NCBI GenBank assembly: GCA_951406725.2
Contig: OX597826.1
Location: 35,526,001-35,590,000 of the forward strand
DNA: 64,000 nt
Direction: 5' to 3'
Origin: Octopus vulgaris
Lineage: Eukaryota
Shown: piece after piece, positions 20,851-54,659 of the stretch
How positions within the stretch are numbered: position 1 is the stretch's first letter
Layout: each line of letters opens with the position of its first letter
Program-made: the position numbers and the translations under genes
The notes under the pieces: model-generated
Databases searched by the model: none
What the model was told of the DNA's origin: nothing
The model's input: the letters and a program-made list of their open reading frames with translations, nothing else

Positions 20851-20982
20851 CATCAATTCCGTAAACCAGGAGAAAATTAAAAAAACATTTACCCTGTATT
20901 TCTTATACGATGCACCGTTTCATCTACTGTTTAATGGTAAACTAACCTGATTAAATTAAATCAAGCCAATCTACCATAGGCC
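20851..20982 (-). repeat. 132-bp inverted partial copy of the 490-bp unit
   Basis: Reverse complement of 21316-21447. Confidence 0.97.
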
Positions 20983-21292
20983 TGTTATTTCTAGTGGGTG
21001 AATGGCCTATTATGGCCGTTCCTTGATTGTGATGTTGAACTTAAAAATGGTTTATGACTATTTAATTTTTTCCCACTAGGCCGCTGGTGGCAATAAGATT
21101 CTACAAAATTTTTTTGCCACCCTATATTGATTAATTATGAATTTTCTGGTTAGTTCCGTAATGGAATCGGCGGCTTATATTTATTTGCTGCCGATAAATT
21201 TGGCGCGAGTGCGATGATTTGAAAATTTTAGGTCAGATATTGCCGAGGCAGGGATGAGAATGCCTCGTGAAAAATATCTGTTCCGACTTGGC

Positions 21293-21401
21293 TATTTCTT
21301 ACTGATGAATCTAAGGGCCTATGGTAGATTGGCTTGATTTAATTTAATCAGGTTAGTTTACCATTAAACAGTAGATGAAACGGTGCATCGTATAAGAAAT
21401 A
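21293..21401 (+). ncRNA. Type I hammerhead ribozyme (copy 1)
   Basis: Stem I tatttctta/taagaaata; CUGAUGA 21302-08; stem II atcta/tagat plus extended hairpin; GAAA 21377-80; stem III cggtgcatcg; GUA cleavage after 21392. Confidence 0.9.
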
Positions 21402-21782
21402 CAGGGTAAATGTTTTTTTAATTTTCTCCTGGTTTACGGAATTGATGTTATTTTGCGGTTGAAGCTTTTGGCTGTTATTTCTAGTGGGTGAATGGCCTAT
21501 TATGGCCGTTCCTTGATTGTGATGTTGAACTTAAAAATGGTTTATGACTATTTAATTTTTTCCCACTAGGCCGCTGGTGGCAATAAGATTCTACAAAATT
21601 TTTTTGCCACCCTATATTGATTAATTATGAATTTTCTGGTTAGTTCCGTAATGGAATCGGCGGCTTATATTTATTTGCTGCCGATAAATTTGGTGCGAGT
21701 GCGATGATTTGAAAATTTTAGGTCAGATATTGCCGAGGCAGGGATGAGAATGCCTCATGAAAAATATCTGTTCCGACTTGGC

Positions 21783-21891
21783 TATTTCTTACTGATGAAT
21801 CTAAGGGCCTATGGTAGATTGGCTTGATTTAATTTAATCAGGTTAGTTTACCATTAAACAGTAGATGAAACTGTGCATCGTATAAGAAATA
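21783..21891 (+). ncRNA. Type I hammerhead ribozyme (copy 2, G>T in stem III)
   Basis: Identical to copy 1 except at 21872; predicted cleavage after 21882. Confidence 0.85.
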
Positions 21892-22111
21892 CAGGGTAAA
21901 TGTTTTTTTAATTTTCTCCTGGTTTACGGAATTGATGTTATTTTGCGGTTGAAGCTTTTGGCTGTTATTTCTAGTGGGTGAATGGCCTATTATGGCCGTT
22001 CCTTGATTGTGATGTTGAACTTAAAAATGGTTTATGACTATTTAATTTTTTCCCACTAGGCCGCTGGTGGCAATAAGATTCTACAAAATTTTTTTGCCAC
22101 CCTATATTGAT

Positions 22112-22176
<65 letters not shown>

Positions 22177-24823: not shown

Positions 24824-24903
<80 letters not shown>

Positions 24904-25135
24904 GTGCATGTGTATGTTTGTGTGTCTGTGTTTGTCTCCCCAACATTGCTTGACAACCGATGCTGGTGTGTTTACTTCCCCATAACTTAGCAGTTCAGCA
25001 AAAGAGACCGATAGAATAAGTACTAGGCTTACAAAGAATAAGTCCAGGGGTCGATTTGCTCAACTAAAGGTGGTGCTCCAGCATGGCCACAGTCAAATGA
25101 CTGAAACAAGTAAAAGAGTAAGAGTAAAAAGAGTA
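24660..25135 (+). mobile_element. SINE family A, full length
   Basis: Well-preserved consensus head, TA/TG core and tail. Confidence 0.9.
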
Positions 25136-25142
25136 TATATAT

Positions 25143-25520
25143 TCTTTATTCTTTTATTTGTTTCAGTCATTTGACTGCACCTGTGCTGGAGTACTGCCTT
25201 TAAATGAACAAATCGACCCCAGAACTTAGTCTTTGTAAGTCTAGTACTTATTCTATCAGTCTCTTTTGCCAAACTACTAAGTTACAGGTACATAAATACA
25301 CTAATTTCAGTTGTCAGTAGTGTGGGGATAAATACAGACACACAAACACATATATACCTACAACATATATCTATATCTATCTATCTATATATATATATAC
25401 GACACGCTTCTTTCAATTTCTGTCTACCAAATCCACTCATCAAGGTGACATATAGTGGGACTGAACCTGGAACCATATGCTTGGGATGCAAGCTTCTTAC
25501 CACACAACCATGCCTGTGCC
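25143..25520 (-). mobile_element. SINE family A, tail-to-tail with the previous copy
   Basis: Reverse complement of family A tail and head. Confidence 0.85.
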
Positions 25521-26063: not shown

Positions 26064-26243
26064 TTGAATAAAACCTTAGAAATGAGAACCCAGGTTCGAA
26101 ATTTCCCCAAGACATCTGATGAAGGCTGGAGGGTATATCAGCCGAAACGTTGTGTTAAGAACAACCAACATGAGGACAAATATCCGTTAAATGTAATAAT
26201 GTAAATAATGCACATAATTCCTCATCTCTTTAATATAGAACTG
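25691..26243 (+). mobile_element. tRNA-headed element with Penelope-type hammerhead tail, preceded by an inverted partial copy (25691-25886)
   Basis: A-box TGGCATAGTGG 25902, B-box GAGTTCGATTCC 25945, (AAT)n, then a ~180-bp tail; the tail is also present inverted upstream and at 46083-46200 and 49660-49828. Confidence 0.8.
26111..26156 (+). ncRNA. Minimal type I hammerhead ribozyme (Penelope-type)
   Basis: gacat CUGAUGA a ggctg(gagggtatat)cagcc GAAA cgtt gtgtt. Confidence 0.8.
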
Positions 26244-53150: not shown

Positions 53151-53425
53151 AGGTTTATTAATAAAAATCAGTTTATTAATAAAAATATTTGATCAAGCAT
53201 AATAAAAACTGTAAATGATATAAAGGTTCATAAAATAATGCAACCACTGAAATGATCCCTCTGATGAGCATCTGCATAGTTTCCATTGGCCAAATTTCTC
53301 TTACAAGGTAATTGCTGAACCAAAGGCTATGACAGGAATATCTACGTGTCATAGGAATAAGATTCAAACAAAACGCATGCATTTTGTAGTTGCTGAGTGG
53401 ACTTCTTAACAACACAGCCAAAATG

Positions 53426-53689
53426 TTAGAAAATTACTAATTGTAAATCTCACAATGAGAGATATACAGCAAAAGTACTTTGAAGTAAAGATTATTTACC
53501 AACATAACATGGCAGTCCTGGTTTAGGACAAATAATTATTCTGTGCTGATGAAGAGAAATAACCCAGAAATCGCGATACACAGATTGTGTCATATAGCCA
53601 GCTGGGGACGATGTCTCCTGGAGCTAAATTACAGTAACATTAGTCCTAAGCCAGGACTGCCATGTTATGTTGGCATATAATCTTTACTC
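53426..53689 (+). mobile_element. 264-bp hairpin element with internal hammerhead
   Basis: 13-bp direct repeat cacagccaaaatg at 53413 and 53690; 46-bp inverted repeat 53484-53529/53643-53688; hammerhead 53540-53584. Confidence 0.75.
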
Positions 53690-54659
53690 CACAGCCAAAA
53701 TGGTCCTTCACAAAGAACTGAGCTGTTTGCTGAAACAGCATCTAAAGATTTAGGAGAATTCACAATAACATAGATTAAGAAGGGAAGGAAATGTTTCATT
53801 CTGTAGCAGATTGCATTCCTTGAATTCTAACTTGGAATGGTTAAGTTTAAAATGCAAAACTGTTAATGAAAAATATTACTATATTTAGTAATGTTGACTT
53901 AATTGCAATTACTTATGATTAAGGCCCTGGACTTTATTATAGTGGCTACTAACATTTTTCCAGCCAATCATATTTGATGTTAGTCTTTGATAGACATTGC
54001 AAGACTTAAAGACAACTAATTTTCATGTGTAAAGCTCTTATGAAATATTCTAGAACTGTTTACTGAGCTTATGAAAATCTTAGAGCTCAGCACTGTTAGG
54101 ATATTTATAGTTGTGACCAAATATCTTATCAAAACTGTATTTATTAACCTACTTCTTATCCCACAATTTCTTTTTCTCTAAGAGATTACTCTTGTTATAA
54201 TCAATTGTTATGTCCTACATTTATATGAACTCTCTCAGCTCATCCGTAATTTCTTAATCCACACACACTTAATACATATACAGACTATAAATTGTACATT
54301 GTGTGTATAAAAATGTTTAGCATTATTCATAATCATTGTTGAAGATAAATGTTTCCTTTTTGATGAGAAGGAATTATCTTCTATAATGTTCTTATTGCTA
54401 TCATTTATCCACCATGTTAATCAAAACACAATGTTATCGTAATATTCTTTTATTCTTTCATTCTTTTAATAGTTGCAGTCATTGAGCTCAAGTTATATAC
54501 TAATTTGTAGTGTAACATATAGATTCACAGAATTATGTAGCTACCACAGAAAGCTCCTCTAGCAGACCAGGATAGCAGACCACATAGTAATCTGATAGAG
54601 AACAGTATAGTTCTTTTATTCTTTTACTTGTTTCAGTCATTTGACTGCAGCCAAGCTGG

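Follow-up and report, generated by a model that had tools for sequence, protein, structure and literature searches.

A 264-bp insertion in the window (the whole 64,000-nt stretch of Octopus vulgaris DNA that was analysed, to which all coordinates refer) is a truncated, rearranged and internally deleted copy of a 353-nt non-coding hammerhead unit, here called family A. Judged by the anatomy of its insertions, the family appears to behave like a non-autonomous Penelope-like element (PLE), and by its sequence-level features it can be regarded as a new addition to the animal non-LTR retrozymes. The features of the window copy, with the kind of evidence for each, are the following:

53413..53425, no strand: left copy of the TSD, 13 bp (exact repeat)
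53426..53482, minus strand: 'tail', unit 353-297, present in the inverted arm only, its outer end being the fixed 353 end (unit map)
53483..53533, minus strand: remaining antisense arm, unit 296-246, forming the left arm of the inverted repeat (unit map)
53529..53533, no strand: inversion junction, about 5 nt common to both arms (overlap of mapped segments)
53540..53584, plus strand: predicted type I hammerhead motif (invariant core, covarying stems across families)
53578..53585, plus strand: 8-nt microhomology, unit 132 to unit 193 (overlap of segments 76-132 and 185-301)
53586..53689, plus strand: 3' structured domain, unit 193-296, ending at the fixed ~296 end (unit map, fold)
53604-53609 / 53613-53618, plus strand: second hairpin in the 3' structured domain (sequence)
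53640-53689, plus strand: right arm of the inverted repeat, in the 3' structured domain (unit map)
53690..53702, no strand: right copy of the TSD, 13 bp (exact repeat)

The direct repeats at 53413-53425 and 53690-53702 are identical at 13/13 positions and enclose 264 bp, and the inverted arms 53484-53529 and 53643-53688 match at 43/46 positions, both as described in the initial annotation; a repeat search lengthened the arms to 56 nt at 89%. The same annotation had this repeat close the whole insertion, but 57 nt of element sequence (53426-53482) lie outside it on the left and the repeat is thus not terminal. Nor is the insertion the monomer it had been taken for, as it consists of three unit pieces, namely 353->246 inverted, followed by 76-132 and 185-296. 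From this composition, the 46-bp inverted repeat is explained as the overlap, unit 246-296, of opposite arms. Two arms copied in opposite directions thus overlap here and leave a tail of about 57 nt, and the repeat is neither the end of a MITE nor an RNA stem enclosing the ribozyme. The antisense arm (unit 353-246) matches the consensus at 92%. The insertion folds with a z score of -9.95, which is driven by the inverted arms. Rfam searches of the insertion and of two near-consensus copies (L114 and L192) gave no match to a hammerhead family, and over the whole window the best 150 of 358 rows were AT-repeat artefacts, with no hammerhead family among them.

The hammerhead elements and the second hairpin were found at the positions first given. 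Stem I has 6 bp (53540-53545 / 53579-53584), CUGAUGA occupies 53546-53552 and GAAA 53567-53570, an 8-nt palindromic stem III spans 53570-53577, and cleavage is predicted after A53578. It had been expected that a consensus would restore stem II and conserve the core. In the family A consensus the core is kept and stem II pairs as GGG/CCC, but the first stem II pair is A.G and not the G-C pair that PMC4209133 gives as highly conserved, and the expected restoration thus applies to only part of the helix. In the window copy an A at unit 102 breaks the middle stem II pair, and this mismatch variant is common to 44/143 family A segments, mostly with A at 113, from which it is evident that A102 is a source variant that goes beyond mere decay and has spread with the weak stem. 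As G is invariant at this position in the sister families described below, G102 is considered ancestral, and A-to-I editing as its origin was dismissed as unnecessary.

A 34-nt hammerhead pattern had 276 exact matches genome-wide, compared with 0 for the reversed control, and together with the excess of TSDs over swapped-flank controls (see below) this shows that the insertion seen in the window is no chance pattern. Since the pattern catches 23/60 hammerhead-bearing segments of BLAST-picked loci, the 276 matches suggest roughly 700 or more such segments in the genome. A search for a pattern with a longer stem II produced a single match, a damaged family A copy. The circular consensus of family A folds with a z score of -8.0, and in the full unit the hammerhead sits on an imperfect stem I of about 50 bp (unit ~36-92 with 126-184), which differs from the 46-bp repeat that had been proposed to close the ribozyme RNA. 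This long stem I is predicted to keep the cut ends of a monomer together. In the window copy a 60-nt deletion at the 8-nt microhomology takes out its 3' strand, and with a single hammerhead, a mismatched stem II and the long stem I lost, this copy is probably dead.

The consensus of family A was derived from 57 loci (60 fetched, 3 duplicates left out); it has a GC content of 0.41 and no long ORF in six frames. With the insertion as query, 3269 first-look candidates were obtained in the 2.8-Gb genome, the best 40 of which were scored, and a second query gave 1986 first-look candidates. Copies differ from the consensus by 4.1% when CpG and variable sites are excluded, and the family is therefore not very young. 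Non-CpG variants at unit 102, 285, 296 and 336 displayed linkage only at short range. Position 102 differs between segments or arms of one insertion in 10/36 pairs, where independence would give 43%, and templates may therefore have been mixed or switched.

In total 117 loci were mapped, 57 of them BLAST-picked and 60 taken from the first 100 pattern matches listed; L004/L006 and L147/L148 are apparently duplicates of single insertions, each counted twice. A head-to-head inversion is present in 97/117 loci, and in 65 of these 97 inverted copies the antisense arm starts at 345-353 and the sense arm ends at 289-308. Direct repeats of at least 11 nt flank 41/97 inverted copies but only 1/300 swapped-flank controls. 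Among 44 scored insertions with both usual ends, the TSD measures 10-15 nt in 41 and 12-13 nt in 22 (range 10-20 nt), and in 33 it begins at unit 296-298; where the unit ends at ~296, target and unit agree over 0-7 nt, a figure without a control. At 50/97 inversion junctions an overlap of 1-7 nt was observed. Arms can be as short as about 30 nt or as long as about 780 nt, and copies do not share the same centre. Arms longer than one unit were found on the antisense side in 16 and on the sense side in 22 of the 97, and because some arms exceed one unit, a multimeric or circular template is needed.

The head-to-tail junction 353|1 is crossed in 48/117 loci, although half of the BLAST set was selected by a junction query and the fairer figure is the 19/60 of the pattern-picked set; genome-wide, the junction has 163 exact matches and the control 0. 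Tandem or permuted copies had been anticipated from the window sequence, and these counts bear that out. Loci that extend past unit position 1 by homology continue into position 353 (48/117), and the locus maps contain neither an LTR pair nor a shared coding flank. The longest array seen has 2.6 units, two same-strand hammerhead segments occur in 8/117 loci, and there was no long array among the first 100 of the 163 junction matches listed. The 5' ends of arms fall within unit 120-133 in 14/194 cases, with about 8 expected if uniform, and there is no clear pile-up at the cleavage site. Arms crossing this site number 46 antisense and 70 sense of 97, counts that are biased by locus picking.

Other repeats were observed in the window. 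A different hammerhead family, with an extra A and a 5-bp stem II, is present at 26116 (+), 49702 (+) and about 46140 (-), as inverted pairs beside (AAT)n repeats. It has no similarity to the 264-bp insertion, in line with the earlier impression that the two are unrelated. At 20851-22118, a 490-bp unit forms about 2.3 head-to-tail repeats that are 99% identical; an inverted arm of 132 bp lies to their left, and they end at (TA)n. The layout is that of a Penelope-copied unit, the repeat is very young, and Rfam gave no notable match for it. Two opposite copies of a common interspersed repeat make up a 555-bp imperfect palindrome (79%) at 24857-25399.

Three sister families (B, C1/C2 and D; L168-L187, L188-L217, L223, L232, L233 and L240) were found, B by way of a 34-bp match and then 1615 candidates, and C1, C2 and D via pattern searches. 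Their consensus units, derived from 20, 7, 5 and 4 loci, respectively, are 352-360 nt long and display the same two end classes as family A; identity between families is 54-66%, and C1 and C2 share 89%. Folded as circles, the consensus units of all five reach z scores of -5.7 to -13.9 (40 shuffles each), and in each the sense fold is stabler than the antisense fold. Stem III is a palindrome of 6-10 nt with a different sequence in each family, at the first stem II pair B has C.A, C has U-A and D has A-U, never G-C, and the core and the 16.1 U are invariant in 20 natural copies. When 14 natural copies were evaluated on a structure obtained by RNAalifold from the same alignment, with one helix judged misaligned left out, 92.7% of cells paired compared with 80.5 +/- 1.3 in shuffled alignments (0/500), and 16/26 pairs had changed on both sides (5/500 shuffles), including all 6 stem I pairs and 2/3 stem III pairs; the rows are related (4 families) and the shuffle counts are not probabilities. 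These data indicate that the hammerhead core and fold are kept with compensatory changes across three sister families. The 3' ends lie beside (TA)n in 17/39 cases in family B and in 4/90 in family A, a contrast that may point to a different target bias or different partners. Yet another hammerhead family (L219, L220, L222, L227, L228, L234, L236, L239, L244), whose stem II is G-rich and whose stem III is palindromic, does not cluster with A-D.

PLE insertions are described in PMC3846280 and PMC8557442 as having an inverted 5'-truncated copy and, at one end, a tail of 30-40 bp. Family A has the head-to-head inverted 5'-truncated copy at the 5' side (97/117 loci) and the tail (ends at ~296 and 353 in 65/97), although its tail has 57 nt and not the described 30-40 bp, and an ORF for RT and GIY-YIG, as in autonomous PLEs, is absent from the element. 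For the anole PLE, PMC11167929 reports that in vitro the RT starts at two internal sites, with the tail lying between them, and that cutting and extension affect both strands of the target; a dimeric protein is predicted there.

ORFs of 781 aa with RT and GIY-YIG exist in the octopus genome (16/150 scored matches); the domains were found in the 781-aa ORF, the RT slightly below the Pfam cut-off. None of 46 GIY-YIG loci (30 + 16 widened, partly the same places, out of 6136 candidates) shares sequence with the unit, save for one inserted family B copy. Two apparent links were rejected: the hammerhead 0.9 kb behind a GIY-YIG ORF at L193 is a separate family B insertion past the element's end, and the two hammerheads 2.9 kb apart at L210/L211, which might have been a PLE between pLTRs, belong to a local duplication with LINE-like sequence. 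As an observation apart, L092-L094, L096, L097 and L104 are autonomous elements with RT and GIY-YIG that end at (TA)n, and in many of them the 781-aa ORF is intact; in the L096 type there is a hammerhead-like motif whose stem II has U.U at its base.

Transcripts were sought in two raw RNA runs (X21 and X22) from a related organism, fragmented libraries of unknown selection, with L043:1331-1700 as reference. Matching reads numbered 2104/12.9 million and 1798/12.0 million records, about 150-160 per million, and the two orientations of the family sequence were equal in both runs. Of the placed reads, 69-76% continue into unlike flanks (two runs, mostly embedded copies). No pile-up of read starts or ends was detected in the two runs, and such libraries may miss circles or cut ends. 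A back-joint of 354 in the reads was discarded as a sign of a circle, being explicable by the tandem inside the reference. Double-stranded RNA would be expected from the inverted arms in transcripts. The reads also differ at many places by A>G and T>C, which are inseparable from copy differences without matched DNA.

We consider it very probable that the insertions are copies of a hammerhead unit made by a Penelope-type enzyme, whichever form the template takes, and a model that includes a cleavage-and-circle step has our qualified preference. In such a model a tandem copy would be transcribed, and the hammerhead, probably as a dimer through the palindromic stem III, would cut the RNA to unit length. 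The stem I of about 50 bp is predicted to keep the cut ends together, and the monomer would be ligated into a circle. A borrowed PLE RT + GIY-YIG endonuclease would then nick the two strands of the target at a distance of about 12-13 nt, and reverse transcription would be primed from each of the nicks, starting at unit ~296 from one and at 353 from the other. The outcome would be the pattern seen in the genome, head-to-head arms of variable length, often longer than one unit, joined at microhomologies and flanked by a TSD; for the window copy, both arms would have ended early, giving the 264-bp form.

Several observations could also be accommodated if the same element and enzyme used an uncleaved linear read-through dimer transcript, with the hammerhead slow or dispensable in family A and no circle formed. 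Most arms pass the cleavage site, the 8/117 loci with two same-strand hammerhead segments are possible sources of such a transcript, the base of stem II is not G-C and its broken variant is frequent, RNA ends did not pile up in the two runs, and the anole PLE still inserted in vitro when its hammerhead was mutated (PMC11167929). However, selection on the ribozyme fold is needed to account for a core that does not vary and for stems I and III that covary between families with 54-66% identity, and the unit length is constant at 352-360 nt. Arms of 2.2-2.6 units occur, yet the first 100 of the 163 junction matches listed included no long array, and fragmented RNA libraries of unknown selection may hide circles or cut ends. 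We consider a linear template rather unlikely.

It is improbable that the copies are merely 5'-truncated ends (pLTR stumps) of an autonomous PLE without an independent unit, although the insertion signature resembles that of autonomous PLEs (PMC3846280), pLTRs normally carry hammerheads (PMC4209133) and the partner search spanned only 46 loci. What follows beyond position 1 is position 353 (48/117 loci) and no shared coding flank in the maps, there are 163 exact junctions genome-wide, four families have equal unit length, and the hammerhead, with its 6-bp stem I, 4-position stem II and short palindromic stem III, is retrozyme-like and differs from PLE minimal motifs, which typically have a long stem II with one extra base (PMC4209133). 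An ancient pLTR origin of the unit may be envisaged. As for a transposon of the MITE or foldback DNA type, in which terminal inverted repeats would enclose a hammerhead-like motif by chance, the insertion is indeed short, non-coding and of high copy number, with an inverted repeat and a TSD. But the repeat leaves the 57-nt tail outside, the arms vary from about 30 to 780 nt around a variable centre, the TSD varies over 10-20 nt (mostly 12-13), tandem permutations are present and the hammerhead covaries, all of which makes such a transposon barely credible and agrees with the initial annotation, which had preferred a retrozyme-like or pLTR-like element to a MITE.

On the reading of a Penelope-copied hammerhead unit, a more specific proposal can be put forward tentatively and with more doubt than confidence: the four families would be small circular RNAs under whole-fold selection, and their copies would be the trace of a Penelope enzyme that acts as a dimer and primes twice, at two fixed positions within a conserved domain of several hairpins. 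The two primings would at times use different RNA molecules, since arms of one insertion disagree at position 102 in 10/36 pairs. If true, no Penelope recognition element would have been mapped on an animal retrozyme before this multi-hairpin domain.

A literature search, with Repbase/Dfam and several supplements outside its scope, gave no description of octopus retrozymes, and the families may already be listed elsewhere under other names. PMC7761336 (2020) describes retrozyme repeats without a conserved motif indicating a partner and left the mobilising enzyme open; the accessible text of PMC6765202 and PMC13282606 holds nothing contrary, and that of PMC13282606 does not contain the word 'ribozyme'. 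Annotation programs would take copies such as that in the window for MITEs. Two candidate start sites on a 353-nt RNA, available in four diverged versions, would make a compact substrate for in vitro Penelope priming.

Compared with the metazoan non-LTR retrozymes of Cervera and de la Pena (2020, PMC7229834), with units of about 350-390 bp in mussel and of 331 and 353 nt in axolotl, family A likewise has a short non-coding unit (150-450 bp) in head-to-tail copies, a single type I hammerhead in each unit, its core and stems conserved, a GC content below 50%, a TSD of more than 4 bp and no LTR pair in the maps, as well as a strongly self-paired circular fold and a weak palindromic stem III. An axolotl motif in that paper is also mismatched at the base of stem II. 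With a helix I of 6 bp, a helix II of 4 positions and a helix III that is short and palindromic, the hammerhead agrees in layout with the canonical type I motif of metazoans (PMC4209133). In contrast to the retrozymes of PMC7229834, most copies of family A are dispersed insertions shorter than a dimer that have one arm inverted and both ends fixed, and the word 'inverted' is absent from that main text; circRNA and cleavage were shown there, whereas for family A both are predicted. In common with the EN+ PLEs of A. vaga (Pen, PMC3846280) and anole (Poseidon, PMC11167929), family A has an inverted 5'-truncated head-to-head copy, a tail at one end, a TSD, junctions with microhomology and a hammerhead upstream of the RT start region, but it is without an ORF and its tail has 57 nt and not 30-40. 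The anole enzyme began at non-homologous sites in vitro (PMC11167929), whereas family A displays the uncontrolled target match of 0-7 nt. The Chlamys non-autonomous PLEs (MRC1, PMC8557442) are similarly non-coding PLE-mobilised units with pLTRs and head-to-tail copies; unlike family A, they are algal, mostly without canonical hammerheads, and resemble the autonomous partner at the 3' end. The preprint bioRxiv 10.64898/2026.07.22.740005, which reports that 8/9 Xenopus retrozyme dimers gave no in vitro cleavage, considers retrozymes to be non-autonomous PLE derivatives and so agrees with our view of the mobilising machinery. Its evidence is co-occurrence in vertebrates and pLTR similarity, and in its main text 'tail' does not appear and inverted arms are not analysed, whereas here no homologous pLTR was found and the case comes from insertion anatomy, the Penelope insertion pattern being directly visible in 97 copies.
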